Of a DNA stretch of 64,000 bases, positions 6,920-44,707 are shown piece by piece. Under the pieces are notes generated by a model that did no database searches, was not told where the DNA came from, and was given only the letters and a program-made list of their open reading frames with translations. A program made the position numbers and the translations under genes. Each line of letters opens with the position of its first letter. The first letter of the stretch is position 1. Source of the DNA: Anaerolineae bacterium (GTDB taxonomy: Bacteria > Chloroflexota > Anaerolineae > B4-G1 > SLSP01); NCBI GenBank assembly GCA_034437255.1, contig DAOTUH010000126.1:19198-83197 (forward strand). The letters are read 5' to 3'.

Positions 6920-6969
6920 GGTAGAAACGATGAGCAGTCCATGTCCATCGACCTAAGGAGGCAACTTCT

Positions 6970-8169
6970 GTGAGACGCCCGATACGATTTCTATGGCTGT
7001 TTTTGATGTTCACGACGTTGGCTTGTGTCTTGCTTGCGACGGAGGAGCCCACGACCACACCGACCGAGGAGGAAGCCAACACGGCGGGAGCGCCTACGTC
7101 CACCGACACCTCCGATCCGGCAATGACACAAACGCCAACTGCAACGACTGAAGGCGACGAAACGAGGAACGGCGACACACCCACCTCAACACCGGCAGGC
7201 TGCACGTTAGGCGCGAGCTTCATCGAGGACGTGACCATTCCCGATGACACTGCGCTGGAACCCGGCGCGGACTTCCGCAAGACGTGGCGGCTGCGCAACT
7301 CCGGAAGTTGCAATTGGGAAGCGGGCACGCGGTTGGTTTTCGTGAGCGGGGAGACGCTGAACGGGCCAGACAGCGTGATCGTCCCGGCGGCTGCGGCCGG
7401 ATCGACGGCCGAGGTCAGCGTGGAGCTCACCGCGCCCACGACGCCGGGCACCTATCGCAGCGAGTGGCGGCTGCAAGCGCCGGACGGCACCCGGTTCGGC
7501 ACCACCATCTACGTGCAGATCATCGTGCCGGAGCCACCGACGGTCACGCCCACGCCGACCGATACGCCTGCCCCGATCACTGCAACGCCGACGCCCACGT
7601 CAACGCCAGACGAGACAGGCTGCACCACACCCTACGATCCCGCTTTCACCGCGACGATGGACTACGCCGCCGACCTGGGCTTTGACATTGGATGTGCCGA
7701 GAGCTTTGGATACGATATGTCCGGTGCTGTGCAGATTTTCTGGGCCAACGTCGACGAGCCTAATCCCCATTTGCACTACCGGACGCTGATGATCTGGAAC
7801 AAGCCCTACAAGCAGGGCGAGATTTACTACGTCACCGTCTCCGAGACAACACCCGTGCAGCCCTTCCACGCCAGCTACGACACCTGGGAAGAGGAAATGC
7901 CCGAAGTCCCGCCGGACTGCGCCGACATGCCGGTGCCCGACGGTTACCTCATCCCTATTCGAGGTTTCGGCAAGCTCTGGTGTGAGCAGGAGCTCTGGAC
8001 AACTATCGGCTGGCCCAGTGAGTCGGAGGTTGCCATCACGTTTCGCGTCCAGCAGACCGAACACGGCCGGTTGATGCGCTTTGGCGATCCGCTGATCAAC
8101 ACCTATGTTGTGGCGTGGGATTATGATACGAACGAGGCACTGGTGCACATGAATCCGATTGAGCCGTAG
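6970..8169 (+). CDS. Secreted Thr/Pro-rich protein with central Ig-like (NBR1/CARDB-like) domain
   Basis: AAGGAGG SD then a GTG start. Hydrophobic signal with LACVL lipobox-like motif. Long T/P/E-rich linkers. CNWEAG...TRLVFVSG motif. Confidence 0.7.
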   Translation: MRRPIRFLWLFLMFTTLACVLLATEEPTTTPTEEEANTAGAPTSTDTSDPAMTQTPTATTEGDETRNGDTPTSTPAGCTLGASFIEDVTIPDDTALEPGADFRKTWRLRNSGSCNWEAGTRLVFVSGETLNGPDSVIVPAAAAGSTAEVSVELTAPTTPGTYRSEWRLQAPDGTRFGTTIYVQIIVPEPPTVTPTPTDTPAPITATPTPTSTPDETGCTTPYDPAFTATMDYAADLGFDIGCAESFGYDMSGAVQIFWANVDEPNPHLHYRTLMIWNKPYKQGEIYYVTVSETTPVQPFHASYDTWEEEMPEVPPDCADMPVPDGYLIPIRGFGKLWCEQELWTTIGWPSESEVAITFRVQQTEHGRLMRFGDPLINTYVVAWDYDTNEALVHMNPIEP

Positions 8170-20090: not shown

Positions 20091-20206
20091 GATCGTATCC
20101 TTGGCTATGGAAAATGCGCCACTTGAAGTGTGTCGGCCCAGATTCACCGAAGGTTCAAAAATAGTATAGCATAGATTTGAGGGCAAAACAATAGAGGTGT
20201 GGGAAG

Positions 20207-28846: not shown

Positions 28847-28938
28847 GGCGCCATGTACATTTGGTGGTGGGACGCAGGTCTGCATTGCTTGCGCACGACG
28901 GGCGTTCTCTGCCACACAACATCTTTGCACACCGGAGA

Positions 28939-29940
28939 TATACCATGATTGAAGCCGTTCTGCTCGGCACCGCCGCCTCGGCCCCCACCATTCAGCGCGG
29001 CCTGCCCGCCCAAATTGTCATTCACCAGGATGAGCGGTTCCTCATCGACTGCGGCGAGGGCACCCAGCGGCAGATCCTGCGCAGTGGCCTCGGTTTCCGC
29101 CGTTTGGAGCGGGTTCTGATCACCCACGGGCACCTGGATCACATACTAGGTCTGGGCGGCCTGGTCTCCACCTTCGCCCGTTGGGAAGCGGTGGATCAGC
29201 TGAATATCTACGGCGGGCGCTGGGCCTTGGATCGGATCGAAGATTTGCTCTTCCGCGTGGTACTGCGCGGCGCGCGTCCGCCGGTGCCGGTTGAACTTAA
29301 CGATATTCAACCGGGTCTGTTGTTTGAAAGCGAGACACTCAACGTTTCAGCCTTTGCCGTCGAGCACCGGGGCCCTGGCTGTCACGGCTATCTTTTTCAG
29401 GAGAAGGCGCGCCGGCCCTTCCTGGTAGAAAAAGCCGAGGCGCTGGGCGTGCCCGCCGGCCCCGAGCGCCGCGAGCTGGTCAACGGACAGTCTGTCACAC
29501 TGGAAGATGGGCGCGTTATTGAGCCGGACGACGTGCTGGGGCCAGATCGACCCGGTGTCTCCGTGGCGATTACGGGCGACGTCGCCAGCATTGCCGAGCT
29601 GGTCGTGTCGCTTCAAGGTGTCGATCTGCTGGTCTGTGAGGCGACCTATCTTGAGGAAGATGCCGAGATGGCCAAGCAGTTCGGTCACCTGACGGCAGCG
29701 CAGGCTGCAACGTTGGCGCGCGAGGCCGGCATGCGGAGCCTGGTGCTCAATCACCTCTCGCAGCGCTATCGCGTGCGCGATATGCTGACGGAAGCGCGGG
29801 CCATCTTCCCCAACACCATCGTCGCCCGCGATTTTGACCGGTTCCGCGTCACCCGAGATCGCATCGATCTGGTGAACGAGGAGCTCCACAATGATGAGAC
29901 GTTCTTCAAGACGTTAGTCGACGAGAGCGCAGACAGATAA
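28939..29940 (+). CDS. rnz: Ribonuclease Z (metallo-beta-lactamase tRNA 3'-processing endonuclease)
   Basis: ITHGHLDHILGL is the HxHxDH motif. Overall RNase Z/ElaC pattern. Start at MIEAVLLGTAAS (28939) preferred over the track's 28861. Confidence 0.85.
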   Translation, partial: YTMIEAVLLGTAASAPTIQRGLPAQIVIHQDERFLIDCGEGTQRQILRSGLGFRRLERVLITHGHLDHILGLGGLVSTFARWEAVDQLNIYGGRWALDRIEDLLFRVVLRGARPPVPVELNDIQPGLLFESETLNVSAFAVEHRGPGCHGYLFQEKARRPFLVEKAEALGVPAGPERRELVNGQSVTLEDGRVIEPDDVLGPDRPGVSVAITGDVASIAELVVSLQGVDLLVCEATYLEEDAEMAKQFGHLTAAQAATLAREAGMRSLVLNHLSQRYRVRDMLTEARAIFPNTIVARDFDRFRVTRDRIDLVNEELHNDETFFKTLVDESADR

Positions 29941-30373: not shown

Positions 30374-31471
30374 GTGAAACGCAACCTATGGAAAGTTCTC
30401 TCTGTGGCAATGGGTTTGATTATCGTCCTCACGGGATGTGGCCTGGGTGCCCCGCCCGAACCTGAAGAGGCCTTCAAGGTAGCCTTCGTCTACATCGGCC
30501 CTCCCGGCGACCCGGGCTGGACGTACGAGCACGACCGCGGACGCAAGATGCTGGAGGAGGAGTACGGCGACGCGGTCGAGACGACGTATATCGAAAACGT
30601 GCCCGAAGGCCCCGACGCCGCCCATGTGATCCGCAACTACGTGCAGCAGGGCTACGACATGATCTTCACCACGTCTTCTGGATACATGGATCCCACGCTC
30701 GAAGTGGCCCAGGAGTTCCCCAACGTCCTCTTCGAACACTGCTCCGGCTACGAGACCGCCGATAACATGTCCACGTACTTCGGACGCATGTACCAGCCGC
30801 GCTATCTTTCCGGCATCGTCGCCGGCGAGATGACGGAAGCCAACCAGATCGGCTACGTCGCGGCCTTCCCCATCCCCGAGGTGATTCGCGGCATCAACGC
30901 CTTCACCCGTGGCGTGCGCTCCGTTAACCCGGAGGCCGTGGTCAGCGTGGTGTGGACCAACACCTGGTACGATCCCGTCAAGGAGCGTGAGGCGGCTGTC
31001 GCGTTGTTAGACGAGGGCGTCGACCTCGTCACCCAGCACCAGGACACGACCGAACCCCAGAAGGCCGCGCAGGAACGCGGCGCGCTGAGCGTCGGCTACG
31101 ACTCCGACATGCGGTCCTTCGTCGGCGACACGGTGCTGACCAGCCCGGTTTGGAACTGGGGCACCTACTACGTCGATACCGTCGGCGCGGCCATGAACGG
31201 CGAGTGGGAAACCCACCAGTTCTGGGGCGGCATGGAAACCGGCGTCGTGGAGCTGGCTGACTACAGCCCCAAGGTATCCGAGGACGTTCGGAACACGGTG
31301 GCCTCGGAACGCGAGCGGATCGTTGATACCGACTGGGATATCTTCTGCGGCCCGGTCAAGGACCAGGACGGCAACGTCGTGGTCGCCGAGGGCGAATGCA
31401 TGAGCGACGAAGATATGCTCAACATGAACTTCTTCGTCGAGGGCGTCTCCGGCACCATCCCGGAAGGGTAA
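30374..31471 (+). CDS. BMP-family ABC transporter substrate-binding lipoprotein (nucleoside-type)
   Basis: Lipobox LTGCG. KVAFVYIGPPGDPGWTYEHDRG and overall PnrA/Med/TmpC family similarity. Confidence 0.9.
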   Translation: MKRNLWKVLSVAMGLIIVLTGCGLGAPPEPEEAFKVAFVYIGPPGDPGWTYEHDRGRKMLEEEYGDAVETTYIENVPEGPDAAHVIRNYVQQGYDMIFTTSSGYMDPTLEVAQEFPNVLFEHCSGYETADNMSTYFGRMYQPRYLSGIVAGEMTEANQIGYVAAFPIPEVIRGINAFTRGVRSVNPEAVVSVVWTNTWYDPVKEREAAVALLDEGVDLVTQHQDTTEPQKAAQERGALSVGYDSDMRSFVGDTVLTSPVWNWGTYYVDTVGAAMNGEWETHQFWGGMETGVVELADYSPKVSEDVRNTVASERERIVDTDWDIFCGPVKDQDGNVVVAEGECMSDEDMLNMNFFVEGVSGTIPEG

Positions 31472-31795
31472 TCACTGGGGTGTGTTTCGTTTGAGTCGCG
31501 TGCGTATTGCGTGTTGCGTATTCTACGCGAGAAGCTATCTTAGCGATGCCCGGCTCATTCAGAATACACGTAGTTCGTTCGGGTGGAGGGGGGGGACGCA
31601 CGTCTGCTCCCTCCGCCCCTCCAGCCTAGGACAGAAAACGTGAGGGGCAATGCCGGCTCACCAGGGAAGAGTAAAAATCGGACACGGACGAACACAGAAA
31701 AACACGGCAAAAACAAAAAACGAAGCGAAGCCGTAGCGAAGCCGTGGCGAAGCCGTGATCGCAGTCCGTGTTCTGCCGTGTCCTAAAATGGCATG

Positions 31796-31895
31796 ACGGT
31801 AGAGTACGCTTGAGGCGCCCCCAGGAGCGCGGAGCCTGCCTGGAGAGGCACGGGGGCTGGGAGCATCATTGTGCGTCTTTTACCCAAATGTCTAA
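31796..31895 (+). repeat. GC-rich ~95-nt element F, copy 2
   Basis: Matches 26583-26680. Located inside the 505-nt spacer between the SBP and ATPase genes. Confidence 0.5.
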
Positions 31896-31976
31896 AATAG
31901 AACCCTCGTTGTAGTAGTGTTAGCTGCTGCCAGACATTGCCGTTGACGTTTTAGGTTCTATGAAGAGGAGAAATTT

Positions 31977-33506
31977 ATGACCGAAGAACACGCCCCGGTC
32001 CTTGAGATGCACAATGTCACCAAGCGATTTCCCGGGGTTCTCGCCAACGACCACGTCGATTTAGAGCTCTATCCTGGCGAAGTGCTGGCCCTGCTGGGCG
32101 AAAATGGCGCCGGAAAAAGCACCTTGATGAACGTCCTGGTGGGGCTCTACCGCCAAGACGAGGGTGAGGTCTACGTGCGCGGCGAGCGGGTGGAGATCCA
32201 TTCGCCCCGCGACGCCGACGCGCTGGGTATCGGCATGGTCCACCAGAACTTCAAGCTGGTGGAGACAATGACTGTCGCCGAAAACATCGTCCTGGGCATG
32301 CGCGACCTGGCCTTCACGCCAGACATGAACCAAGTTGCAGCGCGTATTAACGAGATCTCCGAACGCTACAATCTCAAAGTCGATCCTAAAGCCAACATCT
32401 GGCAGTTGAGCGTCGGCGAGCAACAGCGCGTGGAGATACTCAAGCTGATCTATCGCGGCGCCAACATCCTGATCCTGGATGAGCCCACGGCTGTGCTCAC
32501 CCCGCAGGAGTCCGAGGAACTGGCGCGCGTGCTCAACGTGATGACCGGTGAGGGAAAGTCCGCCGTTTTTATCACCCACAAGCTGGACGAGGTCATCGCC
32601 TTCTCTGACCGGGTGCAGGTGCTGCAGCAAGGAAAGAGCGTGGCGGTCAAGAAGACATCCGAGACAACGCGGCAAGAGCTGGCGCGCCTGATGGTCGGGC
32701 GCGAGGTGCTCTTCCGGCTGGAGAAGGAGCCGTGCGAGCCAGGTGGCGTGGTGCTAGAACTAGAAAACGTGCACGCCCTCGACGATAAAGGACTTCCGGC
32801 CTTGCGTGGCGTGTCCCTGGAGGTCCGATCGGGCGAAATCCTGGGCATCGCCGGGGTGGCTGGCAACGGACAGCGCCAGCTCTCCGAGGTGATCACGGGG
32901 TTACGCCAGGTGATGAAGGGAACGATTCAGATCAACAGCACACCCATGACGAACACATCGCCCTTGCGCGTGATTAAGGCGGGTGTCAGCCACATCCCCG
33001 CCGACCGCATTGGCATGGGCGCCGTCAGCGACATGGCTGTCTCCGACAACCTGGCGATGAAAGGCTACCGCTCACCGCCGCTGGCCGAGAGCGGCATCCT
33101 GCGTCCCAAGCGGATCCTGGAATTCGCCAGACACCTGATCACCACGTTCAATATCAAGACGCCTACCCCGCACACCCACATCAAGTTCCTCTCTGGCGGT
33201 AACATTCAAAAAGCGATCCTGGCCCGCGAGATCGAGGCGTGCAGCGGGCTTCTGATCGCCGTCTATCCATCGCGGGGTCTGGACGTGGGCGCCACGGAGT
33301 CGGTGCGCAAGTTGTTACTTGAAGAGCGGGACGAGGGCAACGCGGTTCTGCTCATCTCCGAAGACCTTCAGGAGCTGATGACCATCGCCGACCGCATCGC
33401 CGTCCTCTTTGAGGGCCGTATCATGGGTGTGGTGCCGGCTTCGGAGGCCGATATCGAACAGCTGGGCATGATGATGGCCGGTGAGGAAAAAGTGCCCGCC
33501 GGGTAG
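31977..33506 (+). CDS. ABC transporter ATP-binding protein with duplicated ATPase domains
   Basis: Two Walker A motifs (GENGAGKST, GVAGNGQ-type), LSGGxQQ signatures and a duplicated arrangement typical of nucleoside/sugar CUT2 ATPases. Confidence 0.9.
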   Translation: MTEEHAPVLEMHNVTKRFPGVLANDHVDLELYPGEVLALLGENGAGKSTLMNVLVGLYRQDEGEVYVRGERVEIHSPRDADALGIGMVHQNFKLVETMTVAENIVLGMRDLAFTPDMNQVAARINEISERYNLKVDPKANIWQLSVGEQQRVEILKLIYRGANILILDEPTAVLTPQESEELARVLNVMTGEGKSAVFITHKLDEVIAFSDRVQVLQQGKSVAVKKTSETTRQELARLMVGREVLFRLEKEPCEPGGVVLELENVHALDDKGLPALRGVSLEVRSGEILGIAGVAGNGQRQLSEVITGLRQVMKGTIQINSTPMTNTSPLRVIKAGVSHIPADRIGMGAVSDMAVSDNLAMKGYRSPPLAESGILRPKRILEFARHLITTFNIKTPTPHTHIKFLSGGNIQKAILAREIEACSGLLIAVYPSRGLDVGATESVRKLLLEERDEGNAVLLISEDLQELMTIADRIAVLFEGRIMGVVPASEADIEQLGMMMAGEEKVPAG

Positions 33507-33598
33507 CCAGCAATCTCACATCGGGTAGCGGATAGGATCAACAAACCCTCCTATTGTGAGTTCCGACCACCGCTGCCAGATCACGTAAGGAGTCATAG

Positions 33599-34711
33599 AT
33601 GCAAATTGTCTTTGAAAAACGAGGATCCGTTTCACGTCGCGCCATTGTCCTGGTTCCCATAATCTCATTCTTAGTCTCGCTCTTGCTGGGCGCGATCCTG
33701 CTCATCGCCTCCGGCGTCAATCCGCTGATCACCTACGCGGCCATGACCCGAGGCGCTTTCGGCTCGTGGCGCAGCATCTCCGAGATGCTGGTGAAAGCCA
33801 TTCCGCTGATGCTGACCGGTTTGGGCGTCTCCATCGCCTTCCAGATGCGATTCTGGAACATCGGAGCCGAGGGACAGTTGGCCCTGGGCGGCGTTGCAGC
33901 CGCCTGGGTGGCGCTCTTTCTCGCCGATTTCATCCCCAATCCCCTGTTGCTCCCGACGGTACTGCTCTTCGGCGTACTGGCCGGCGCGCTGTGGGCCGGC
34001 ATCCCCGCGACACTGAAGGCAACGCTGGGCGTGGACGAGACGCTGACCACGCTGATGCTCAACTACGTCGCCATTCTGTTCTCTGAGCATCTCTACTACG
34101 GCCCCTGGCGCGATCCCGGCGGCTACGGATTCCCGGGGACGGCGCCCTTCCCCGAAGCCGCGTGGCTCCCGCGTTTGGGCAACACCCGCGCGCACCTGGG
34201 ACTGATCTTCGCCCTTATCGCGGCGGCGGCGCTCTGGTTCATCTTCAGACGCACCCGCTGGGGATTCGAGCTGCGCATCATCGGCGAAAATCAACGCGCG
34301 GCCCGCTACCTGGGCATTAACATCGGGCGGAACATCGTGCTGGCCCTTCTCATCTCTGGCGCGCTGAGCGGCCTGGCCGGCGCCTGCGAGGTAACCGGCA
34401 TCTCGCGCCGTTTGCAGCAGGGGCTCTCTTTGGGCTACGGTTACACGGCCATCATTGTGGCCTGGATGGCACACCTCAATCCCATCGGCGTCATTTTCGT
34501 CGCCCTTCTGATGGGGGCGCTGCTGGTCGGCGGCGATCAGGTGCAGATGATGATGCGATTGCCGGCTGCCGTGGGCGTCGTGCTTCAGGGCATGATCCTC
34601 TTCCCCATGTTAGCAGGGAGCCTGTTCACCGAATTCAAGCTGCGTATCATCCGTCCTGCGCAAGACAAAACGAGCATCCCGACAACCACAACCACGGAGG
34701 TACCATCGTGA
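33599..34711 (+). CDS. ABC transporter permease
   Basis: 370 aa polytopic membrane protein. BPD/branched-chain-type permease pattern. Confidence 0.9.
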   Translation: MQIVFEKRGSVSRRAIVLVPIISFLVSLLLGAILLIASGVNPLITYAAMTRGAFGSWRSISEMLVKAIPLMLTGLGVSIAFQMRFWNIGAEGQLALGGVAAAWVALFLADFIPNPLLLPTVLLFGVLAGALWAGIPATLKATLGVDETLTTLMLNYVAILFSEHLYYGPWRDPGGYGFPGTAPFPEAAWLPRLGNTRAHLGLIFALIAAAALWFIFRRTRWGFELRIIGENQRAARYLGINIGRNIVLALLISGALSGLAGACEVTGISRRLQQGLSLGYGYTAIIVAWMAHLNPIGVIFVALLMGALLVGGDQVQMMMRLPAAVGVVLQGMILFPMLAGSLFTEFKLRIIRPAQDKTSIPTTTTTEVPS

Positions 34712-35667
34712 GCGCTATGCCACTGTTGACTTCGATCTTGGCCATCACGCTACGCGCCGGCGCGTCGCTCATCTACGCGACGGTCGGCGAGATCTACACC
34801 GAACGCTCCGGCATCCTCAACCTGGGACTTGAGGGCATCATGCTCATGGGCGCGGTGACCGCTTTTGCCACCGCTTATTACACGAAAAGCACCTGGGCAG
34901 GCATCGCCGTCGCGATGCTGGTGGGCGCTGCATTAGCTGCCGTTCACGCATTTCTATCCGTCACCATGCGCGCTAACCAGGTGGTGAGTGGCCTGAGCAT
35001 CACGCTCTTTGGACGTGGCATGGCCAGCTTCCTGGGACAGCGTCTGGGACCGGCAAGTAACGGTTACTATCTCGTCGGTCTGGTAGGCCCCCGCTTCACC
35101 GCCAAGGCCATCCCGTTCTTGAGCGACGTTCCCATCCTGGGCGCAGCCTTCAAACAAGACGTTCTCACCTATCTACTCTACGTTCTGGTGCCGGTGGCGT
35201 GGTACTACCTCTACAAGACCCGCAACGGTCTGAACCTGCGCGCCGTGGGCGAGAATCCGCAGACGGCCGACGCCATGGGCATCAACGTGATCCGGGTACG
35301 CTATATCTACACCATCCTCGGCGGCATGCTGGTAGGCCTGGGCGGCGCCCATCTTTCTCTGGCCTACACGCCGGGCTGGGCGGAGAATATCACCGGCGGG
35401 CGCGGCTGGATTGTCATCGCGCTGGTCATCTTCGCCATGTGGAATCCGGGACGCGCGGCGCTGGGCGCCATCCTCTTCGGCGGCATCAATGCCGTGCAGT
35501 TCCGCCTGCAAGCAGCGGGCACGACGATTCCCTCGGCCTTTCTGAACATGATGCCCTATTTCGCCACCATCCTGGTGCTCATCGCCATGACGTGGTGGGA
35601 AAACCTGAGTAAGCGGATCGGGGCGCCAGCAGCGCTGGGTGAATCCTATATGCGCGAGGAGAAGTAA
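34708..35667 (+). CDS. ABC transporter permease
   Basis: 319 aa polytopic. Overlaps the upstream permease by 4 nt. Confidence 0.9.
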   Translation: MSAMPLLTSILAITLRAGASLIYATVGEIYTERSGILNLGLEGIMLMGAVTAFATAYYTKSTWAGIAVAMLVGAALAAVHAFLSVTMRANQVVSGLSITLFGRGMASFLGQRLGPASNGYYLVGLVGPRFTAKAIPFLSDVPILGAAFKQDVLTYLLYVLVPVAWYYLYKTRNGLNLRAVGENPQTADAMGINVIRVRYIYTILGGMLVGLGGAHLSLAYTPGWAENITGGRGWIVIALVIFAMWNPGRAALGAILFGGINAVQFRLQAAGTTIPSAFLNMMPYFATILVLIAMTWWENLSKRIGAPAALGESYMREEK

Positions 35668-35669
35668 GT

Positions 35670-36086
35670 ATGACAGATGACTATCGAGCTGCTTTTTACC
35701 GACATTGGGATAGCTCTGCCTTATTAGCACAAGAAGCCCAGGGAGAGTCCGGTTCTACCGCCCTACGATACTGGCAGGAAGCCGCTTACTTGGCAGGGTA
35801 TATCGTTGAATGTGGCACGAAGATGATGATAGAGGAAGCTGATGGCAATCCTTGGGGACACGATCTCGGAGAGCTAAAAAACCAGGCTCTGGCGGTCGCC
35901 AGCACCTTGCGTTTACCCGCCCAACTTTCCAGTCTGTTGAGCAGAATAGACACAGGAGATCTCCAAAATTGGCACCCGAGCCTGCGTTATGCTGCAGAGG
36001 AGCCAGGGGAACTTGGCTCTTATCAAGGTATCGTGAGTGAATCTCATGACCTTGCAAATGAGTTGTATGTCTGGATAACAAGGTAA
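35670..36086 (+). CDS. HEPN-like small protein (candidate)
   Basis: 138 aa. ALRYWQEAAYLAGYIVECGTKMMI resembles the HEPN helix pattern. Lower-GC DNA. Start is 3 nt after the permease stop. Confidence 0.4.
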   Translation: MTDDYRAAFYRHWDSSALLAQEAQGESGSTALRYWQEAAYLAGYIVECGTKMMIEEADGNPWGHDLGELKNQALAVASTLRLPAQLSSLLSRIDTGDLQNWHPSLRYAAEEPGELGSYQGIVSESHDLANELYVWITR

Positions 36087-36101
36087 GAGGATAGGGGGAA
36101 C

Positions 36102-37472
36102 ATGATGCAGAGCATCAGGTTCGATGATGTGTTAGCAAAGATAGTTGACATTATTTGCAATTTTCAGCATGCCAACCTCTTGCAGAGCGTCACGCTTATC
36201 CGCGATCCTTTGGGACGGGTTCAATTGGCCTTGGCGTGGAAAGCCGAAGGGGAAGGCCGTCAAAGGATACCAGAGTGGGTTGCAGAATTGGAACACAAGT
36301 GTCGAGAGGGCCTGGGTATCTATTGGCGATCCGTCATCTGGACGTTGACGGGGATGGAAGAACAGCTGTCAGAGCCAGGTGCCCAACAACTCATGCGTCA
36401 GGCCCGCGGCGATTCGGGACAACAGGCTTGGTCGGCGTTGTGGGAGGAGATATGTGCGCAACGGGTGCCTTGGTCCCACCCCCTCACCAAAACGTCGGCG
36501 TTTGCCTGGTACAAGATCGAGAAGGTTTTTTCCAATGCCAGTTGGTTGACTCCCCCGGCTAAACCGCTGTGGCCTTTAGACGCCCAAAATCCGGCCGTGG
36601 TGGCATTTCATTCTTTTAAAGGCGGTGTTGGTCGGACATTGTCCGTCGCCGCCGTAGCCCTTATCTTGGCACAGAACGGGCAAAACGTTGCTATACTCGA
36701 TCTGGATCTGGAAGCACCAGGGTTGGGAGAACTGTTCTTTGATGTAGAAAATTTTGACTTGGGCGTGGTGGATTATTTGCTGGCGTATCAACTCACAGGG
36801 CAACGGCCCAGCACACTCAGCCGGCACGTTGCCAACATCACAGATTCCACGTTAATTGGAGATATATACCAACAACCCATTCGGCTTTTGCCAGCTGGCC
36901 CCATTGATACGAATTTCCCGGAGAAGATAAGTCGCCTGGATTGGGGTGCGAGCATGCGGACGCAAATCTCTGGAGACGCGCTGAAAGCATTGCTCCGACA
37001 TGTACGCGATCAATATAGCCCGGATTTTGTCCTCCTTGATTCTCGCTCCGGTTTGCACGATCTTGGGGGTCTGTCTCTGCTGCACCTCAGTCACCTGGCG
37101 ATTTTGTTGGGGCGTGATACGTCCGCAAGCTGGCATGGATTACAGGTCATCCTAGAACTCTTCCGAGATGCCCCGCACGCGCCCCTATTTTTCCTAGTTG
37201 AGGCATTGGTCAGGCCGGAAGAGCTGAACGGCGAGCTTTGGGATCTAGACTATCAAAGCCGCGCTCAGCAGATCATGATGGAGATCAGTTACCCTAAAGA
37301 TCTACCCGATCTGGGTTTCTCTCTTTATGGCGTACCGATTGTGTACGATAAGACGCTCCACGCGGTGACGCGGATCAACGAATCTGTGGCAGAGCGCCTA
37401 ACTGGGGCAGAAAGCGACTATGTTCGTCTGACACAGGAGATCTGTTTGCAGGTGGAACGAACGTGTTTCTAG
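36102..37472 (+). CDS. ParA/MinD-family deviant Walker A (KGGVGRT) ATPase with ~200-aa N-terminal domain of unknown function
   Basis: VVAFHSFKGGVGRTLSVAAVALILAQNGQNVAILDLDLEAPGL. Walker B-like FVLLDSRSG. Lower-GC DNA. Confidence 0.7.
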   Translation: MMQSIRFDDVLAKIVDIICNFQHANLLQSVTLIRDPLGRVQLALAWKAEGEGRQRIPEWVAELEHKCREGLGIYWRSVIWTLTGMEEQLSEPGAQQLMRQARGDSGQQAWSALWEEICAQRVPWSHPLTKTSAFAWYKIEKVFSNASWLTPPAKPLWPLDAQNPAVVAFHSFKGGVGRTLSVAAVALILAQNGQNVAILDLDLEAPGLGELFFDVENFDLGVVDYLLAYQLTGQRPSTLSRHVANITDSTLIGDIYQQPIRLLPAGPIDTNFPEKISRLDWGASMRTQISGDALKALLRHVRDQYSPDFVLLDSRSGLHDLGGLSLLHLSHLAILLGRDTSASWHGLQVILELFRDAPHAPLFFLVEALVRPEELNGELWDLDYQSRAQQIMMEISYPKDLPDLGFSLYGVPIVYDKTLHAVTRINESVAERLTGAESDYVRLTQEICLQVERTCF

Positions 37473-37497
37473 TCGATCACGTTGAGGGCAGGAAAAC

Positions 37498-39042
37498 ATG
37501 AAACATAGGGATGAGTTGTTACACGCTCTGGAAAAAATCGGTCAATGGGGAGCCAAGGCCGAGACACTGGATCAAGAAACTTTACTCCATGCCACCCTCC
37601 CTACCCAGGCATTGAAACTCATTCATGATCCCGAGATTCTGCTCATTGTGGGAGGACGTGGGGCCGGGAAAACCCATCTTTTCCGTCTACTGAACATCTT
37701 GGAAGCGCGCGAGATTCATCTGGAGGAGATGATACTCCGACAACGCGAGCAGGATCGTTGGCTTACCGGTTTCAGCACGTTGACCGATGCCGGGCAGCGA
37801 TTCCCAACGTCCTCTACCCTCCATGCGCTGGCCAAAGACCGGACTCGCGCAGAGCTGGTTTATTTCTGGCGAGGCTTGTTGGCCCACGTCTTGCTGCGCA
37901 AGCGTGACGAGGCCTTTCTTGCGCCTTTCCACGCGACCCTGCAAGATGCCCTTTCAGCTCAAGCGTTCAAGACGTTAAGCCAGGATGTTTTCAAAATCAA
38001 CCATATATGGGACCTCACGCAATCTTCCAACGTCTCTGCGGCTATGGATCAAGCCTTCTACAAGCTAGACGCGAGCTTGAAGTCGTCGGGTCAAGAGCAG
38101 TATCTGTTCATCACCTATGATGACCTAGATCATCTGGCTCTAGATTGGGAACAGGGCCGTAAATTGATCCAATCCCTGTTTCAGTTCTGGATGGAACAAT
38201 GGCGAATTCTGCATTACATACGCCCCAAGATTTTTATCCGTCAGGATTTGTGGGCACCGGAGTTCTTGGATTTCCCCGATGCCAGTAAATTCAACGCACA
38301 CCGGATAGTGTTGACGTGGACGCCGCGCCTGCTATACCAGCTGGTGTTCAAGGCCTGGGCCAACGTGCCGGAGCCACTCGGTAAGGCGGTGCGCGATTTT
38401 TTAGATCATCATCTTCAAATCCGATTTAGCCAAGGCGCATTGGGTTGGATGTACGAAGATTACCCCCGCCATCCCAACGAAGGCGAACTCCAAGCGGTGA
38501 TGCACGCCCTCGTCGGACCATATATGGGCAGCGGCCCGACCAAAGGCCGCTCTTACAATTGGCCCCCCAATCACCTGCAGGATGCGAAAGGCGACCTTTA
38601 CCCCCGTTCTATGCTGCTACTTTTCTCCAAAGCGGCGAGTGATGAGCTCAGCTATGGACGTGGGCGCGAAGATCCGGCATATCTACTGACGCCGACTTCA
38701 TTCCGACAAGCGATGACGGAAGTCTCCAAGCAGCGGCTTCTAGAACTGGAAGAGGAATATCCTTGGATTAAACGGCTTAAGCCTCATTTGCAAGATAAGT
38801 TGGTTCCCATGCCGCAGAGTGAAATGGAGGAACTACTAAAGGAGATTTCATGGGAGGAAGCGTCGTCCCGCGAGACCCCGCCACATACCGCTCCGCGCCA
38901 GTTGATAGCGTACATGCTTTCCATTGGCGTCCTCCGCCGGACCAATGACGGGCGACTACATGTGCCCGATATCTATCTTTATGGCTTTGAGCTTAAGCGC
39001 AAAGGCGGTATTCGTAAGCCAAGAGAGGAACTCCAATTTTGA
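37498..39042 (+). CDS. P-loop NTPase (AAA/STAND-like) of unknown family
   Basis: Walker A LIVGGRGAGKTHLF. Walker B YLFITYDDLDHL. 514 aa. Lower-GC DNA. Confidence 0.7.
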   Translation: MKHRDELLHALEKIGQWGAKAETLDQETLLHATLPTQALKLIHDPEILLIVGGRGAGKTHLFRLLNILEAREIHLEEMILRQREQDRWLTGFSTLTDAGQRFPTSSTLHALAKDRTRAELVYFWRGLLAHVLLRKRDEAFLAPFHATLQDALSAQAFKTLSQDVFKINHIWDLTQSSNVSAAMDQAFYKLDASLKSSGQEQYLFITYDDLDHLALDWEQGRKLIQSLFQFWMEQWRILHYIRPKIFIRQDLWAPEFLDFPDASKFNAHRIVLTWTPRLLYQLVFKAWANVPEPLGKAVRDFLDHHLQIRFSQGALGWMYEDYPRHPNEGELQAVMHALVGPYMGSGPTKGRSYNWPPNHLQDAKGDLYPRSMLLLFSKAASDELSYGRGREDPAYLLTPTSFRQAMTEVSKQRLLELEEEYPWIKRLKPHLQDKLVPMPQSEMEELLKEISWEEASSRETPPHTAPRQLIAYMLSIGVLRRTNDGRLHVPDIYLYGFELKRKGGIRKPREELQF

Positions 39043-39530
39043 AAGAAACAGAACCTGCTTTCAGATCCATGCAGCCCACTTCGCGCATGTGTTTCGTATG
39101 TGGACGAGAAAATCCGACCGGTTTGCATATCCAGTTCTACGAAAACCGTGCCGAAGAGCAGGTCGTCGCGCACGTCGAAATCCCCGATTCGTATCAGGGC
39201 TATCCCGGCATCGCCCACGGCGGGATTGTCGCCGCGATTCTGGACGAGGTCTCCGGTCGCGCCGTCATGATGGACGCGGACGAGACGCCCTTCTGGGTCA
39301 CGGCGAAACTCGAGATCCGTTACCGCGAGCCGACGCCCACCGAAACGCCGCTGGAAGCGGTCGGCTGGGTAGAGGAGCGCCACCGACGTTCGGCCCGGGT
39401 CGCCGGGGAGCTCCGGCGTGAAGATGGCACCGTCACCGCCGAGGTCACGTCCGTCGTCGTCTGCCCCAGGGAGGAGACGCTGCGCGAGTGGCAACAGGAG
39501 CGCGAGTTCTGGCGAGTGACGGACACCTGA
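39039..39530 (+). CDS. PaaI/hotdog-fold thioesterase
   Basis: GIAHGGIVAAILDEVSGRAV hotdog motif. 163 aa. Confidence 0.75.
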   Translation: MKETEPAFRSMQPTSRMCFVCGRENPTGLHIQFYENRAEEQVVAHVEIPDSYQGYPGIAHGGIVAAILDEVSGRAVMMDADETPFWVTAKLEIRYREPTPTETPLEAVGWVEERHRRSARVAGELRREDGTVTAEVTSVVVCPREETLREWQQEREFWRVTDT

Positions 39531-39585: not shown

Positions 39586-40719
39586 ATGAGAGAACGACGA
39601 CGAGGACTCCTGAAACCAGAACTGCTGGATGCGGCGCTGCCGCTGCTGGCGACACTGGCGGCGCTGATCATCGGCGCGGTGTTGCTGCTCTTTCTGGGCG
39701 CGAATCCCATTTCTGCCTACGGCGCGCTGTTTGAGGGCGCTTTTGGCAGCGCCAACTCGATAGCCGAGACCCTGGTGAAGGCGACGCCCCTGCTGCTGGT
39801 CGGCGTGGGCATCTGCATCGCGGCGCGCGGCGGCGTCAACAACATCGGCGGTGAAGGACAGCTGGTGGTCGGCGCGCTGAGCGCGACCATCATCGGACTG
39901 GCACTACCAGGAGTCAGCGGCTGGCTTATCATCCCGCTGGCGATGCTCGCAGGATTTGTCGGCGGCGCGATCTGGGGCGGCATTCCCGGCTATCTCAAGG
40001 CGCGCTTCAACGTCAACGAGATCCTGAGCACCATCATGATGAACCAGATCGCCGTCCACGGGATGAACTTCTTGCTCAACGGCCCGCTCATCGATCCGGT
40101 GCAGCTGCAACGCGCCTCGCGTATCCCCCAGACGGCGCGCCTCGCGCGCGGGTTTGATCTGCCACGCCTGGTGCCCACCCGCCTGCACCTTGGGGCCGCC
40201 TTCGCCGTGTTGGCGGCCATCGTCGTCTATATCTTGCTCTGGCGCACCACGCTGGGCTATCGCATCCGCGCCGTGGGACTGAATCCAGAGGCGTCACGGT
40301 ACGCCGGCATCAACGTGCCCCAGCACATCGTCCTCTCGCTCCTGTTAAGCGGCGCCCTGGCCGGGCTGGCCGGCGCCGTGCAGGTCTACGGTCTGCATCA
40401 CCGGATGTTCACCGATGGCTCCACCACCGGCTTCACCGGCAACGCCGGCTTCAACGGCATCGTCACGGCGCTCTTTGGACAGCTGCACCCGTTAGGGACG
40501 ATTCCGGCCTCTTTTCTCTTCGGCGGATTGCTCGTTGGTGCGAATAAGTTACAGCGGACTGCACAGGTGCCCGGCGCCCTGATCACCACGCTGAACGGCC
40601 TGGTCGTGATCTTCGTCGTCAGCAGCGAGATCTGGCAGCGGCGGCGCGCGAAGCGACGGTTGACTGCCGAGGAGACGCCCGGCACTGACGACGAAATATC
40701 TGAGGAGGTGGAGGCATGA
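39586..40719 (+). CDS. ABC transporter permease (second BMP-type system)
   Basis: Paralogous to 33599-34711 (PLITYAAM / PISAYGAL pattern). Confidence 0.9.
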   Translation: MRERRRGLLKPELLDAALPLLATLAALIIGAVLLLFLGANPISAYGALFEGAFGSANSIAETLVKATPLLLVGVGICIAARGGVNNIGGEGQLVVGALSATIIGLALPGVSGWLIIPLAMLAGFVGGAIWGGIPGYLKARFNVNEILSTIMMNQIAVHGMNFLLNGPLIDPVQLQRASRIPQTARLARGFDLPRLVPTRLHLGAAFAVLAAIVVYILLWRTTLGYRIRAVGLNPEASRYAGINVPQHIVLSLLLSGALAGLAGAVQVYGLHHRMFTDGSTTGFTGNAGFNGIVTALFGQLHPLGTIPASFLFGGLLVGANKLQRTAQVPGALITTLNGLVVIFVVSSEIWQRRRAKRRLTAEETPGTDDEISEEVEA

Positions 40720-41651
40720 TCGCTGATCTCTTTTCCGCGCAGGTCTTGATCGGCATACTGGCGTCGGCTATCCGGCTGGCGACGCCCTATCTCTACGCCG
40801 GGATCGGCGAGACCATCGCTCAGCGCAGCGGCGTGCTCAATCTGGGCGTCGAAGGTCAGATGCTGTTGGGGGCCTTCGCCGCATTCTACACCGTCTATCT
40901 GACCGGCAATCTCTGGCTGGGCATCGGCGTTGCGCTCATCGTTGGGATTGTCATGGGGTTGATCATGGCCCTTGTCAGCGTCACGCTCCAGGCGCAGCAG
41001 GGCATCAGCGGCATCGGCGTCTTCCTCTTTGGGCTGGGGCTGAGCGATCTGCTCTTCCAGAAGCTGATCGGCACGGTGGAGACGGTCAGCGGTTTTCCGC
41101 CTCTGCACTTGCCCATCCTCAGTGATCTACCGGTGCTGGGAAAGATTTTCTTCCAGCACAACATCCTGGTCTACATCGCCTTCGCCTTGGTTCCCGTGGC
41201 CGGATTTCTGCTCAACAAGACGACGCTGGGGCTGAAGATCCGCTCCATCGGCGAGAATCCGAAGGCTGCTGATTCGCTCGGCGTCAACGTCAACAGGATT
41301 CGCTATCTGACCGTCACGGTGGGAAGTATGTTGGCAAGTCTGGCGGGCGCGTCGCTGTCCATCGCCCTGCTCAACGTCTTCCAGCAGAATCTCACCAGCG
41401 GCCTGGGGTTCATTGCCGTGTCGCTCGTCTACTTCGGCGGCTGGCGACCGGTCGGCGTGCTGGGTGGCGCGCTGCTCTTCAGCGCTGTCAACGCCTTGCA
41501 GCTCTGGGTGCAGGTGTTGGGCATTCCGATCCCGTCGGAATTCGCCGTGATGATGCCCTATCTGCTGACCATCGTTGCGCTTATCGCCGCCGGGCGGCGG
41601 GCGCAGGCGCCCAGCGCGTTGACCAAACCCTTCGTCCGAGGCGGTGAATAG
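40716..41651 (+). CDS. ABC transporter permease
   Basis: Paralogous to 34708-35667. 4-nt overlap with the upstream gene. Confidence 0.9.
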   Translation: MIADLFSAQVLIGILASAIRLATPYLYAGIGETIAQRSGVLNLGVEGQMLLGAFAAFYTVYLTGNLWLGIGVALIVGIVMGLIMALVSVTLQAQQGISGIGVFLFGLGLSDLLFQKLIGTVETVSGFPPLHLPILSDLPVLGKIFFQHNILVYIAFALVPVAGFLLNKTTLGLKIRSIGENPKAADSLGVNVNRIRYLTVTVGSMLASLAGASLSIALLNVFQQNLTSGLGFIAVSLVYFGGWRPVGVLGGALLFSAVNALQLWVQVLGIPIPSEFAVMMPYLLTIVALIAAGRRAQAPSALTKPFVRGGE

Positions 41652-41857
41652 TCGATGTTGAGCTCTGTCCGAGACAAAAACCAACCAACGGATTGAACGG
41701 ATGAAACGGATTCTTACTTGATCTGTTGCATCCAAGGATGACCTTTGACCTTTGGCATTCGACATTTGACATAGACTCCTTTTCAAGGAGGTGCGATGGA
41801 CCCAATCTGGCATTTAGCTTAACGATTCTTTCAGCCCTTACCAAGAGGAGATAAACA

Positions 41858-42859
41858 ATGCGTAAACTATACAGCACCATGATCGGCTTAGTTCTGTTGA
41901 GTTTGTTGCTTGTCGGCTGTGGTGGCGCGGCGGAGGATGACGGCGTCTTCCGCGTGGCGGTGGTCATGCCCAGTGCGATCAATGACCTCGCTTTCAGCCA
42001 GAGCATGTACGATGCGTTGATAACGCTTCAGGAAGAGCGCGGCGGTGAAGAGAATTTCGAGATTGCCTACTCCGACGGGACCTTTGTCGTCGACGAGGCT
42101 GCGGCCGCCATCCGCGACTACGCCGCCGAGGGCTATGACCTGGTCATCGCTCACGGCTCGCAGTATGGCAGTTCGTTGCAGGAAATCGCGCCCGACTTCC
42201 CCGACACCAGCTTCGCCTGGGGCACCACGGTGGACACCTTCGTCGATCAGGGCATAGACAACGTCTTCGCCTACGAGGCGCGGGCGGAAGAGGGCGGCTA
42301 CGTCAACGGCGTCATGGCTGGCACGCTGACGGAAAGCGGCGTCATCGGCGTGGTGGGACCCATTGAGACTGGCGATGCCAAGCTCTACGTGGACGGCTTC
42401 GTCGCGGGCATTAACGCCGCCAATCCAGACGCGCAGGTTAACGTCAACTGGATCGGCTCTTTCAGCGACGTGGCCCTGGCCTCTGAGGCCGCGCAGACCC
42501 ACGTCAACGCCGGTGCGGACCAGCTTAGCGGCACCGCCCAGATGGTCGTAGGCGCCATTGGCGTGGCCGAGGAGAACGACGTCGCCTGGTACGGGACCCA
42601 GTCCAGCCAGACGTCGCTGGCGCCCAGCGTTGTTGTCGCCAACCAGATCTACGATTGGACAGGCATCTTGAATGAGATACTGACCCTGATCGAGGAAGGA
42701 ACCTTGGGTGGCAAAGCCTTTGCCCTGACGCTGGAAAACGGCGGCCTGGTCATCGAATACAACCCGGATTATCCACTGCCTGATGACGTAAAGACGCTGG
42801 CCGAGGATACCATCCAGGGCATCATCGACGGCTCCATCACCGTGGACGTGGCCGAGTAG
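41858..42859 (+). CDS. BMP-family ABC transporter substrate-binding lipoprotein
   Basis: Lipobox LVGCGG. RVAVVMPSAINDLAFSQ. BMP family. Confidence 0.9.
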   Translation: MRKLYSTMIGLVLLSLLLVGCGGAAEDDGVFRVAVVMPSAINDLAFSQSMYDALITLQEERGGEENFEIAYSDGTFVVDEAAAAIRDYAAEGYDLVIAHGSQYGSSLQEIAPDFPDTSFAWGTTVDTFVDQGIDNVFAYEARAEEGGYVNGVMAGTLTESGVIGVVGPIETGDAKLYVDGFVAGINAANPDAQVNVNWIGSFSDVALASEAAQTHVNAGADQLSGTAQMVVGAIGVAEENDVAWYGTQSSQTSLAPSVVVANQIYDWTGILNEILTLIEEGTLGGKAFALTLENGGLVIEYNPDYPLPDDVKTLAEDTIQGIIDGSITVDVAE

Positions 42860-42972
42860 TTGTAGGATAGGACGACGAGCACGAGGAGACATCCGATTTC
42901 GCGTGAAGTTCACGTTGAGAAATCGGATGTCTTTTCCCAACCACAGGCATTTGAGCTGTGGCTTTAGCAGAA

Positions 42973-43121
42973 GTATCTGTTTAGTCTTCTGAGGTGCGAC
43001 GCACTTTCGCCGAAGTTCACGAGCCGAGGACTCCTAAACCATGCTCGGAGAACTTTGTAGCGCGGTTTATTTCGATCCGTAAGTGCGTTGCACCTGGACG
43101 CTCATAAACCTAAACGGTTGC
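42973..43121 (+). repeat. Conserved structured element E, copy B (5' leader of ABC ATPase gene)
   Basis: About 95% identical to copy C and about 85% to copy A. Ends 20 nt before the ATG at 43142. Confidence 0.55.
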
Positions 43122-43141
43122 TAGCAAAAAAGGATAAGCGC

Positions 43142-44707
43142 ATGACATACGAGGATCGATTACCTTCGAGCGACCAGCGAATTGAGCGGCTGGAGATGTG
43201 CGACATCACCAAGCGCTTTCCCGGCGTGCTTGCCAATAGCTGCGTCCGCTTCGACGTGCATGCCGGTGAGGTTCACGCGCTGCTCGGTGAAAACGGCGCC
43301 GGCAAGAGCACGCTGATGAACGTCCTCTACGGGCTCTACCAGCAGGATGAGGGCGAGATCAGGATTAATGGCGAACCGGTGACCATCGAATCGCCCGTCG
43401 ACGCCATCAAGTTGGGCATTGGCATGATCCATCAGCACTTCATGCTGGTCCCCACGCTGACGGTGGCCGAAAACGTCGCGCTGGGGCTGCCCTCGTCGCG
43501 GGGATTCCTGACCGATCTTGACCGGGTCGCCGAGCGCATCATCGAGCTGGGGGAGACCTACGGCCTCGTCGTCGATCCCGAGGCTTACGTCTGGCAGCTC
43601 TCCGTCGGCCAGCAGCAGCGCGTGGAGATCATCAAGGCGCTCTATCGAGGTGCCCAGCTGCTTATCCTGGATGAGCCTACGGCGGTGCTGACGCCTCAGG
43701 AGGTCGATGACTTCTTCGCCATTCTCCGTCAGATGGTGGCGGAGGGCCATGCAGTGATCTTTATCTCCCATAAGCTCCACGAGGTCCTGGCCATCAGCGA
43801 CCGAGTGACCGTGCTGCGCGATGGCGTCGTGACCGGCAGCCGTCCGCTGGGCGAAGCCACCAAAGAGGATCTGGCGCGCATGATGGTGGGACGCGAGGTG
43901 GATTGGCAGCCGGAGCGTCCGCCGGTGGAACGCGGCGACGTGCGGCTCTCGCTTCGGAACCTTCAGGCCTTCAACGACCGGGAACAGCTGGCGCTGAAGG
44001 GCGTCGACCTCGACGTGCACGCGGGGGAGATCCTGGGGCTGGCGGGCGTCTCCGGCAACGGTCAGCGGGAACTGGCGCAGGTCGTCACCGGGCTACGGGA
44101 GGCCACGCAGGGCGCGGTGTTGATGGACGGTCAGGAAGTGACCGAGGCCTCGGCCAAGGCTCGTATTGAGCGCGGGATCTCCTACATCCCCGAAGAGCGG
44201 ATGCGCGACGGGATGATCAAGGAGTTCAGCGTGGCGGAAAACCTGATCCTGCGCGAGCATCACCAGACGCCCTATTCGGAGCGTGGCTTTCTCAGATTTT
44301 CGGCCATAGCAGAGCGCTCCAAATCGCTGATCCAGCGGTTCAATGTGAAAACGCCTTCCCAGGAGACCCCGGCGCAGAACCTCTCCGGCGGCAATATTCA
44401 GAAACTTATCCTCGCCCGGGAGATATCGCGTCATCCCAAAATCATCGTCGCTGCCCAGCCGACGCGCGGTCTGGACATCGGCGCGACCGAGTACGTGCGC
44501 AATCAGCTGCTGAAACAGCGCTCTGACGGCGTCGCCATCCTGCTGATCTCCGAGGACCTGGACGAGATCCTCGCCCTCTCGGATCGCATCGCCGTCATCT
44601 ACGAAGGGCAGATCATGGACGTGCTGCCGGCTGATGAGGCGACGGCGGAGCAGCTGGGCTTGCTGATGGCTGGCGTGAAGTCTGAGAGGACAAGAGAGGT
44701 TACTTGA
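43142..44707 (+). CDS. ABC transporter ATP-binding protein with duplicated ATPase domains
   Basis: Paralogous to 31977-33506. Start at MTYEDRL with AAGGA SD preferred over the track's 43088. Confidence 0.9.
   Translation: MTYEDRLPSSDQRIERLEMCDITKRFPGVLANSCVRFDVHAGEVHALLGENGAGKSTLMNVLYGLYQQDEGEIRINGEPVTIESPVDAIKLGIGMIHQHFMLVPTLTVAENVALGLPSSRGFLTDLDRVAERIIELGETYGLVVDPEAYVWQLSVGQQQRVEIIKALYRGAQLLILDEPTAVLTPQEVDDFFAILRQMVAEGHAVIFISHKLHEVLAISDRVTVLRDGVVTGSRPLGEATKEDLARMMVGREVDWQPERPPVERGDVRLSLRNLQAFNDREQLALKGVDLDVHAGEILGLAGVSGNGQRELAQVVTGLREATQGAVLMDGQEVTEASAKARIERGISYIPEERMRDGMIKEFSVAENLILREHHQTPYSERGFLRFSAIAERSKSLIQRFNVKTPSQETPAQNLSGGNIQKLILAREISRHPKIIVAAQPTRGLDIGATEYVRNQLLKQRSDGVAILLISEDLDEILALSDRIAVIYEGQIMDVLPADEATAEQLGLLMAGVKSERTREVT

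Follow-up and report, generated by a model that had tools for sequence, protein, structure and literature searches.

What are three closely packed, low-GC genes, encoding a small HEPN-like protein and two ATPases, doing between an ABC-transporter operon and a thioesterase gene in the genome of an Anaerolineae bacterium (Chloroflexota)? The question is raised by a 64,000-nucleotide stretch of contig DAOTUH010000126.1 (assembly GCA_034437255.1, positions 19,198 to 83,197 of the forward strand), referred to here as the window, in which positions 35670-39042 hold genes A (138 aa), B (456 aa) and C (514 aa). The region is a horizontally acquired, self-contained three-gene cassette, precisely inserted between its neighbors. 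Profile matches and gene order place it with PDC-M28, a candidate anti-phage system already listed in PADLOC-DB, and the distribution, gene neighborhoods and predicted folds of the triad bear on what such a cassette might do for its carriers.

All three open reading frames (ORFs) lie on the plus strand, at the positions given by the original prediction, and are co-directional and tightly packed, with spacers of 15 nt (A-B) and 25 nt (B-C). Gene A (35670-36086), delimited by its ORF, a PDC-M28A match and a family hidden Markov model (HMM), encodes a HEPN-family protein of the HEPN-T/AbiV-like type. Gene B (36102-37472) encodes two domains: an N-terminal alpha/beta domain (residues 1-160; 36102-36581), outlined by an AlphaFold2 (AF2) model and lacking both a Pfam match and a family assignment, and a SIMIBI ATPase domain of the ParA/MinD fold that carries the KGGVGR variant (36582-37472; Walker A at 36618-36638). 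Gene C (37498-39042) encodes an AAA+ ATPase of the Sll1717 family and the ORC/Cdc6/BrxC type, with its Walker A at 37651-37674 and a YDDLD motif at 38116-38130. The cassette separates the final permease gene of a Bmp-type ABC-transporter operon from a 4HBT thioesterase gene. The upstream junction (35656-35669) comprises the final permease codons GAGGAG AAG TAA and 2 nt more, such that the stop codon (35665-35667) is followed almost at once by the ATG of A at 35670. To judge from its sequence, GAGGAG (35656-35661) can serve as a Shine-Dalgarno element for A while forming the last permease codons. Because a promoter would not fit into the 5′ junction, the cassette is probably transcribed by read-through from the upstream transporter operon; a promoter and terminator scan gave no promoter-like or convincing terminator-like site, and none above shuffled expectation. 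The downstream junction (39040-39068) runs from the stop codon of C to the thioesterase ATG at 39069. An overlap of C with the thioesterase start, as proposed earlier, arises only if the alternative TTG at 39039 is used, which overlaps the C stop. Public gene calls use ATG 39069 instead, 26 nt past the C stop. The window is also recorded as a microbial-mat metagenome contig (ENA ERZ1757541 contig_8537) and in a metagenome-assembled genome (GCA_964457985.1).

Composition and comparative evidence agree on the foreign origin of this segment. GC content is 0.527 in the island and 0.609 in the remainder of the window; the fall announced from the sequence is real, although its extent is 61% to 53% and not 65% to 50%, and none of the 1078 other 3373-nt windows is as low in GC as the island (their minimum is 0.542). 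GC at third codon positions (GC3) is 0.47 in A, 0.58 in B and 0.59 in C, as compared with 0.78-0.83 in seven flanking genes. More decisive are the empty sites. A scan of metagenomes for close relatives of the permease provided 80 loci (permease identity 49-83%) that share the transporter/thioesterase synteny, and A, B and C are absent from all of them. The closest (L092, L095, L107, L111, L093, L113 and others; permease identity 75-83%) have the gene order ABC-ATPase, permease, permease, thioesterase, permease, permease, Bmp, with 27-130 nt from the permease stop (…YMREEK*) to the conserved thioesterase N-terminus (…QPTSRMCFVCGREN). Because these relatives carry the permease-thioesterase pair without the triad, the triad is a genuine 3.4-kb insertion in place of a short, hypervariable spacer, and the horizontal acquisition first suggested by composition is upheld on both counts. 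No strain-level empty site was found among the ten contigs that encode an identical permease, all of which contain the triad; the empty sites belong to more distant relatives. The locus has no tRNA gene, its flanking direct and inverted repeats do not go beyond chance, and the window encodes no integrase, transposase or recombinase.

The spacer that the cassette replaces is itself variable in the island-free relatives. Several have short tandem repeats at this position, GAGTAAA-like in L093 (~6415-6485) and GGAGTGGG-like in L111 (~6943-7010), and the spacer of L112 (6949-7069) is a further hypervariable example; the site may be recombination-prone. In L099 the permease-thioesterase gap is longer (6940-7704, ~800 nt) and contains no convincing ORF. 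Two paralogous Bmp/PnrA-type ABC-transporter gene sets, at 30374-35667 and 39586-44707 of the window, lie either side of the thioesterase gene in mirror-like order. Each consists of a binding protein, a double ATPase and two permeases, and the arrangement is kept in the island-free relatives. Another patch of low GC (~0.545), at 4955-6863, encodes a GT28/UDPGT-type glycosyltransferase (GC3 0.55) and a 187-aa ORF without a Pfam match (GC3 0.56), and may be a further acquired segment.

The inserted triad corresponds to a cassette that has been described in outline. PDC-M28 of PADLOC-DB v2 (Payne et al., bioRxiv 10.1101/2024.01.29.577857) is cassette CAS_00115, in which three families are arranged A>>B>>C. 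It is one of 145 phage defence candidates that its authors term untested and that were derived from genes embedded in BREX, DISARM and type I restriction-modification (RM) systems. All three window proteins match PDC-M28 models in PADLOC, A weakly (9.4e-6, 24 bits), B at 2.7e-44 and C at 3.7e-78. The genes are adjacent and co-directional, in the order FAM_01482>>FAM_02546>>FAM_01036 of the source table, with the same three families in the same sequence: a HEPN-like A, a KGGVGR ATPase B and an Sll1717-type ATPase C. By these profile matches and this gene order, the sole available definition, the cassette classifies as a divergent member of PDC-M28. Its distance from the best scorers is considerable: the window proteins reach 24, 150 and 262 bits, as compared with 415, 448 and 576 for a triad at 137389-140719 of the Enterobacter bugandensis IncF plasmid pSurvcare220 (NZ_CP039454.1). 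The plasmid proteins match the A, B and C models at 6e-126, 8e-135 and 1e-173, scores that tie the window to the family on which the PDC-M28 models were built. The original reading of a candidate defence module is thereby supported, and each of its elements held up. The candidacy is backed by the PDC-M28 A, B and C matches, but the module has been catalogued since PADLOC-DB v2 as a candidate anti-phage system and is not new to databases.

The three genes travel together well beyond this contig. A pattern scan of GTDB, with one genome per species, identified 225 species that encode a relative of C, from which the best 80 loci were kept. These come from Cyanobacteria (the majority), Anaerolineae, Chloroflexia, Verrucomicrobiota, Phycisphaerales, Acidobacteriota, Alicyclobacillus, Tumebacillus, Heliophilum, Lachnospiraceae and Oscillospiraceae. 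After profile iteration, A, B and C occur in that order in 69 of the 80 loci, and the triad is represented in at least six phyla (Cyanobacteria, Chloroflexota, Verrucomicrobiota, Planctomycetota, Bacillota and Acidobacteriota), with intergenic gaps mostly of −4 to +25 nt. Seven of the 11 exceptions are at contig ends and four are apparently degraded. The incomplete triads away from contig ends are L006 (2515-4320), in which A adjoins C without B, L041 and L067, which have an N-terminally shortened B and no A, and L037; they may be decaying copies or sequencing frameshifts. Outside the GTDB set, the pSurvcare220 triad adjoins a tyrosine recombinase and GNAT/DUF1778 toxin-antitoxin (TA) pairs, and a further triad is found on a Burkholderia glumae conjugative plasmid. 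Across 53 triads the pairwise identities of A, B and C are correlated at r = 0.97-0.98, a value that is inflated by shared phylogeny and is consistent with inheritance as a block. A Nostoc plasmid encodes B and C as a single 890-aa protein, with a HEPN gene upstream (PF05168, 1.8e-4) and hsdR adjoining. Residues 123-313 of the fusion correspond to B (34% identity, 2e-26) and residues 461-888 to full-length C (3e-24). This natural, Rosetta-stone fusion is the strongest evidence that B and C act together. A, B and C are an obligate unit, for which family membership, gene order, co-evolution, fusion and insertion, and the folds of B and C, are established here.

A link with defence comes from the company that the triad keeps. 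The 247 proteins encoded by the ORFs closest to 65 triads, two on either side, were compared with PADLOC. Near-full-length matches were obtained for PglW (E = 0), HmaA (E = 0), DrmMI (4e-237), a type I restriction endonuclease (5e-171), HmaC (5.5e-118), PtuA (7e-193), a CBASS-type endonuclease effector (7e-172) and SAVED (2e-165), and likewise for PDC-S01, AbiEi, AbiLi, AriA, Csx1 and type II and IIG RM enzymes. TnpB-like and TnsC proteins were also among the neighbors. In Calothrix, a plasmid-borne triad directly adjoins HmaA (1435 bits) and HmaC. The original prediction had suggested checking whether homologous triads occur in defence islands elsewhere, and they do often stand beside Hma, BREX, DISARM, RM and Septu genes. 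The other 46 proteins of the window served as a baseline and gave generic PADLOC matches only, the best at 1.7e-36 (mad3, PycC-like cyclase, radical SAM, TPR). Because this baseline shows such matches to be generic and to occur in ordinary genes, mad3, mad8, TPR and PycC matches among the neighbors were discounted. Specific defence genes make up, as a rough estimate, 7-8% of immediate triad neighbors, an enrichment that is semi-quantitative because the scan gives counts per family and not per protein.

The assignment of A to the HEPN superfamily is transitive, by way of its family. Against an HMM built from the A proteins of other triads, with the window sequence left out, window A scores 3.1e-24. 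Pfam HEPN (PF05168) is matched by 49 of 60 A-family members (best 1.9e-9), and the Calothrix orthologue carries the annotation 'HEPN domain protein'. HEPN_AbiV is matched by 12 of the 60, weakly (best 0.0065), and not by window A itself. A PDB sequence-profile search gave weak matches only (1wol at E 0.26; designed helical repeats). By this family evidence A can be placed in the HEPN superfamily (HEPN-T, PF05168), in line with the small HEPN-like protein of the original prediction. Conserved residues of the family are R11-H12, E47-C48..K51, H64 and R106-Y107. The nearest parallels in the literature resemble A in part. In the HEPN + ParA/Soj dyads of the MAE_18760 family, a small HEPN gene and a SIMIBI ParA/Soj-like ATPase likewise share one operon (PMC3710099), but the MAE_18760 HEPN keeps the Rx4-6H motif (PMC3710099), which is lacking from the HEPN-T PF05168/AbiV-matching A family, and the triad requires a third, AAA+ gene. 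Lactococcal AbiV is like the A family in having another conserved His in place of Rx4-6H (PMC3710099); it acts as a single protein, whereas A belongs to a three-gene unit. The HEPN-MNT (HepT/MntA) type VII toxin-antitoxin system was considered and rejected: no MNT domain is present in A, B or C, and the neighbor of A is a ParA-fold ATPase.

Protein B has the fold of a positioning ATPase and an altered active site. Its Walker A motif, K173-G-G-V-G-R178-T (residues 173-179), belongs to NCBIfam NF047398, 'KGGVGR-motif variant AAA ATPase', which B matches at residues 164-352 with 158.7 bits (cutoff 90). The SIMIBI MinD/ParA fold begins at about residue 165. K173, G174, G175, G177 and R178 are invariant across 43 aligned homologues, as are DLDLEAPG and D313-x-R-x-G-x-H-D. 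The cross-dimer signature Lys is thus retained in the family, and the P-loop Lys is Arg (R178) in 43 of 43, giving the motif KGGVGR[TS]. Because the signature Lys is kept but the P-loop Lys is always replaced, B is predicted to undergo ATP-dependent dimerisation with slow or altered hydrolysis. In ParA, MinD, FleN and McdA, by comparison, the P-loop has the GK[ST] Lys that is invariantly Arg in B, and the Walker B-region Pro is replaced in B (DxRxG). B also differs from these proteins in its extra N-terminal domain of ~160 aa, its own NCBIfam family and its lack of a ParB, MinE or cargo partner. A ParA/MinD partition system was accordingly rejected for B, given the missing P-loop Lys, the lack of a partner protein and the lack of a conserved context. 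A PDB sequence-profile search with B matched the P-loop segment only. The KGGVGRT motif and the uncharacterised N-terminal domain had both been recognized at the outset; the domain is closer to 160 aa than to the ~200 aa given then. The AF2 model has a mean predicted local distance difference test score (pLDDT) of 83.2 and is mixed in the N-terminal domain, with 10-residue means of 54-95. A search of 1.84 billion representatives with this domain recovered six proteins, five of 429-456 aa and an 87-aa fragment, and no architecture outside B-family proteins. The domain evolves faster than the ATPase core (mean pairwise identity 0.44 vs 0.58) and is a candidate sensor or partner-binding domain.

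Protein C, described previously as a 514-aa NTPase without an obvious effector domain, fits that description and can now be given a fold. GGRGAGKT (residues 52-59) and YDDLD (residues 207-211) are its Walker A and Walker B motifs. NCBIfam NF047389, 'P-loop ATPase, Sll1717 family', is matched over residues 19-484 of 514 at 75.0 bits, a borderline score given the cutoff of 75; several homologues bear the same name in UniRef and NCBI. In the structural model (pLDDT 88.6; predicted template modelling score 0.88), an ORC/Cdc6-type AAA+ module like that of BrxC forms the N-terminal part, and helical domains lead from it to a winged helix at the C-terminus. Structure comparison ranked the BrxC N-terminal ATPase and Cdc6/ORC highest, with BrxC as the closest solved fold; a PDB sequence-profile search returned only P-loop matches to ABC-F proteins. 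The most conserved part of C is the winged helix with its basic tail (residues 466-514; 38893-39039), …PDIYLYGF.LKRKGG… (identity 0.645), of which the tail is disordered in the model. BrxC/DUF499 (HmaC) of BREX and Hma resembles C in joining an ORC-Cdc6-type ATPase to a helical bundle and winged helix, and HEPN is paired repeatedly with ORC/Cdc6-like ATPases, many DUF499 (HmaC) proteins having N-terminal HEPN fusions (PMC12839542). BrxC is, however, ~1200 aa long (wHTH, alpha+beta, wHTH, coiled coil), and C, at 514 aa, has no PADLOC BrxC or HmaC match. The cassette also differs from BREX and Hma in having no PglZ, PglX, methylase or helicase partners, in encoding HEPN as a separate gene and in the interposed ParA-like ATPase. 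Identity of C with BrxC of BREX was rejected on grounds of size and because the window has no PglZ or PglX genes.

Among near-identical strain contigs from the same mat samples, the A-B spacer (36087-36101 of the window; loci L004 and L085-L091) measures ~15, 18 or 26 nt, and the predicted length of B is 455 or 456 aa. The sequence around the B ribosome-binding site (AGGGGGA) may be indel-prone. ENA gene calls miss gene A entirely on two contigs. In IMG, C is listed under 'energy-coupling factor transporter ATP-binding protein EcfA2' and B under 'MinD-like ATPase involved in chromosome partitioning'; both names are annotation traps and misleading.

How might these three proteins work together? 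On balance, we lean towards an abortive-infection-type conflict module gated by nucleoside triphosphate (NTP), with the HEPN protein as effector, within PDC-M28. In this scheme C, with its ORC/Cdc6/BrxC-like AAA+ module and winged helix, would be the sensor or switch, binding nucleic acid or an invader cue and undergoing an ATP-dependent oligomeric change. B, physically associated with C, would be the adaptor or timer, setting a threshold through nucleotide-dependent dimerisation and restraining or releasing the HEPN protein. A, of the HEPN-T/AbiV type, would then arrest the infected cell, probably via RNA or translation. The defence function, the sequence of events and the HEPN RNase activity are what we infer here, and three precedents favor the scheme. 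Fusions of HEPN to BrxC-like DUF499 ATPases occur in 1370 taxa, and HEPN has been given the part of a back-up effector in BREX-related systems (PMC12839542). HEPN + ParA/Soj dyads have been proposed as toxin-antitoxin modules in which the ATPase controls HEPN (Anantharaman et al. 2013, PMC3710099), and 'inactive' MinD/ParA domains are among the building blocks of NTP-dependent conflict systems (PMC7159879). A narrower proposal, tentative and held with low confidence, is that a ParA/MinD ATPase with an Arg P-loop has given up cargo positioning for a role in immune signalling. An ATP-locked dimer would couple the ORC/BrxC-like sensor to a HEPN protein without Rx4-6H, and the tail of C (…LKRKGG…) would act on B as ParB, ParG or MinE tails act on ParA/MinD.

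Several observations weigh against the conflict-module scheme, besides the limits attached above to the identity correlation and the neighbor enrichment. The cassette in this window is embedded in no defence system, unlike the typical PDC-M28 nomination context, and lies outside any defence island, with transporters as neighbors. A literature search found no paper reporting an experimental test of PDC-M28, nor any relevant paper on PDC-M28, KGGVGR or Sll1717, nor validation in DefensePredictor or other screens; DefensePredictor explicitly excludes PDC systems as unvalidated. Window A has no direct Pfam or NCBIfam match, and a search of 50,697 phage records yielded no homologue of C. Within the module itself, the chief objection to a simple RNase effector is that the canonical Rx4-6H motif is absent from the A family, with no conserved His or Asp 4-6 residues after R106, which makes HEPN RNase activity of A uncertain. 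HEPN-T and AbiV rely on an alternative conserved His instead of Rx4-6H (Anantharaman et al. 2013, PMC3710099).

Other explanations draw on much of the same evidence. The cassette could be a selfish toxin-antitoxin or addiction element, with a HEPN toxin, a ParA-like neutraliser and C as regulator, kept by post-segregational killing or genomic stabilisation and without a dedicated anti-phage role. The same logic has been put forward for HEPN + ParA/Soj dyads (PMC3710099), and it suits a compact insertion unit that has no mobility genes of its own, a patchy distribution pointing to horizontal transfer, and the presence of triads next to TA pairs and recombinases on plasmids, conjugative ones included. 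Three obligately linked genes, including a 514-aa sensor-like AAA+ ATPase, nonetheless exceed the needs of a TA pair, and the repeated placement beside Hma, BREX, DISARM, RM and Septu genes also tells against it. We judge this explanation fairly unlikely, and it overlaps with the conflict module, TA and abortive-infection roles being compatible. Dependence on a larger system is another option, in which the triad would be an accessory or back-up module of a BREX, Hma or RM-type system, with C as a BrxC-like scaffold, and would be an orphan, possibly inert, in this genome. The closest solved fold of C is BrxC, PDC-M28 was nominated from within BREX, DISARM or type I RM systems, the Calothrix triad adjoins HmaA/HmaC, and HEPN serves as a back-up effector in BREX-related systems (PMC12839542). 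Most triad loci, however, have no strong BREX, Hma or RM match in their four nearest genes, and the window triad, although alone, has intact ORFs with all conserved motifs and is present in identical copies in at least ten contigs from several samples. We judge a purely accessory role improbable.

The folds themselves invite a reading as the remnant of a plasmid or an integrative and conjugative element, in which a ParA-type partition ATPase and an Orc1/Cdc6-like replication initiator once served maintenance; the IMG partition name for B and the relatives on plasmids point the same way. Here, however, the triad comes without ParB, centromere repeats, a rep gene, an integrase or any other gene of such an element. 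No ParB/centromere, MinE or cargo-adaptor gene adjoins it, and the neighbors vary between loci. The P-loop Lys is Arg in every B-family member, the HEPN gene is an obligate partner, and plasmid-borne triads are located away from repA and the true partition genes. B and C fall in families of their own, NF047398 and NF047389, and score far under the cutoffs of the partition, MinD and initiator equivalog models. The original prediction had named as refuting outcomes an assignment of the ATPases to housekeeping partition or replication families with conserved chromosomal context and an unsupported HEPN call. Neither ATPase falls in such a family, the genomic context varies, and the HEPN call is supported, so that the refutation fails. 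A maintenance function is very improbable. Least credible of all is a housekeeping role in the flanking ABC transporter or thioesterase pathway. Its attractions are the co-directional, tight packing inside a transporter cluster and the IMG name EcfA2 for C, which resembles ABC ATPases at the P-loop only; triads elsewhere have unrelated neighbors, and relatives with the same transporter/thioesterase synteny do without the triad. The empty sites effectively refute this role.

Elsewhere in the window, a pair of minus-strand genes at 14368-20186, 15-21 kb upstream of the island, looks like an immunity or programmed-cell-death system with a STAND sensor and a CHAT-SIR2 effector. The first (18045-20186) encodes a 713-aa CHAT protease and SIR2-like protein, and the second (14368-18066), which follows directly with a slight overlap, a 1232-aa nSTAND1 NTPase with multiple WD40 propellers. 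On the plus strand, 58510-62757 encodes a 1415-aa protein that combines two adenylate/guanylate cyclase domains with an AAA_16 (STAND-type) ATPase and extended TPR arrays, and this protein accounts for the generic PycC and TPR matches of the window in PADLOC. A metallo-beta-lactamase-fold protein at 28861-29940 (plus strand) carries a precomputed PF23023 Anti-Pycsar_Apyc1 annotation beside Lactamase_B families, probably a generic match to that fold.

One more candidate defence cassette is not surprising in itself, yet the window has particular value for the study of this one. The insertion is natural and unusually clean, empty sites are available to match it, and the divergent Chloroflexi-like sequence helps to define which residues are truly invariant. 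The natural B-C fusion and the Enterobacter plasmid copy make the hypothesis directly testable in E. coli. We know of no validated defence system that uses a positioning-type ATPase as a switch. If the proposed scheme is true, such an ATPase would be the central component here, and a repurposed Arg-P-loop ATPase would represent a mechanistic class of abortive-infection defence not described for any validated system. If the cassette is a working defence system, a widespread module, encoded in at least 225 GTDB species and carried by bloom-forming cyanobacteria, Alicyclobacillus, gut Lachnospiraceae and Enterobacter and Burkholderia plasmids, among others, would join the prokaryotic immune repertoire.

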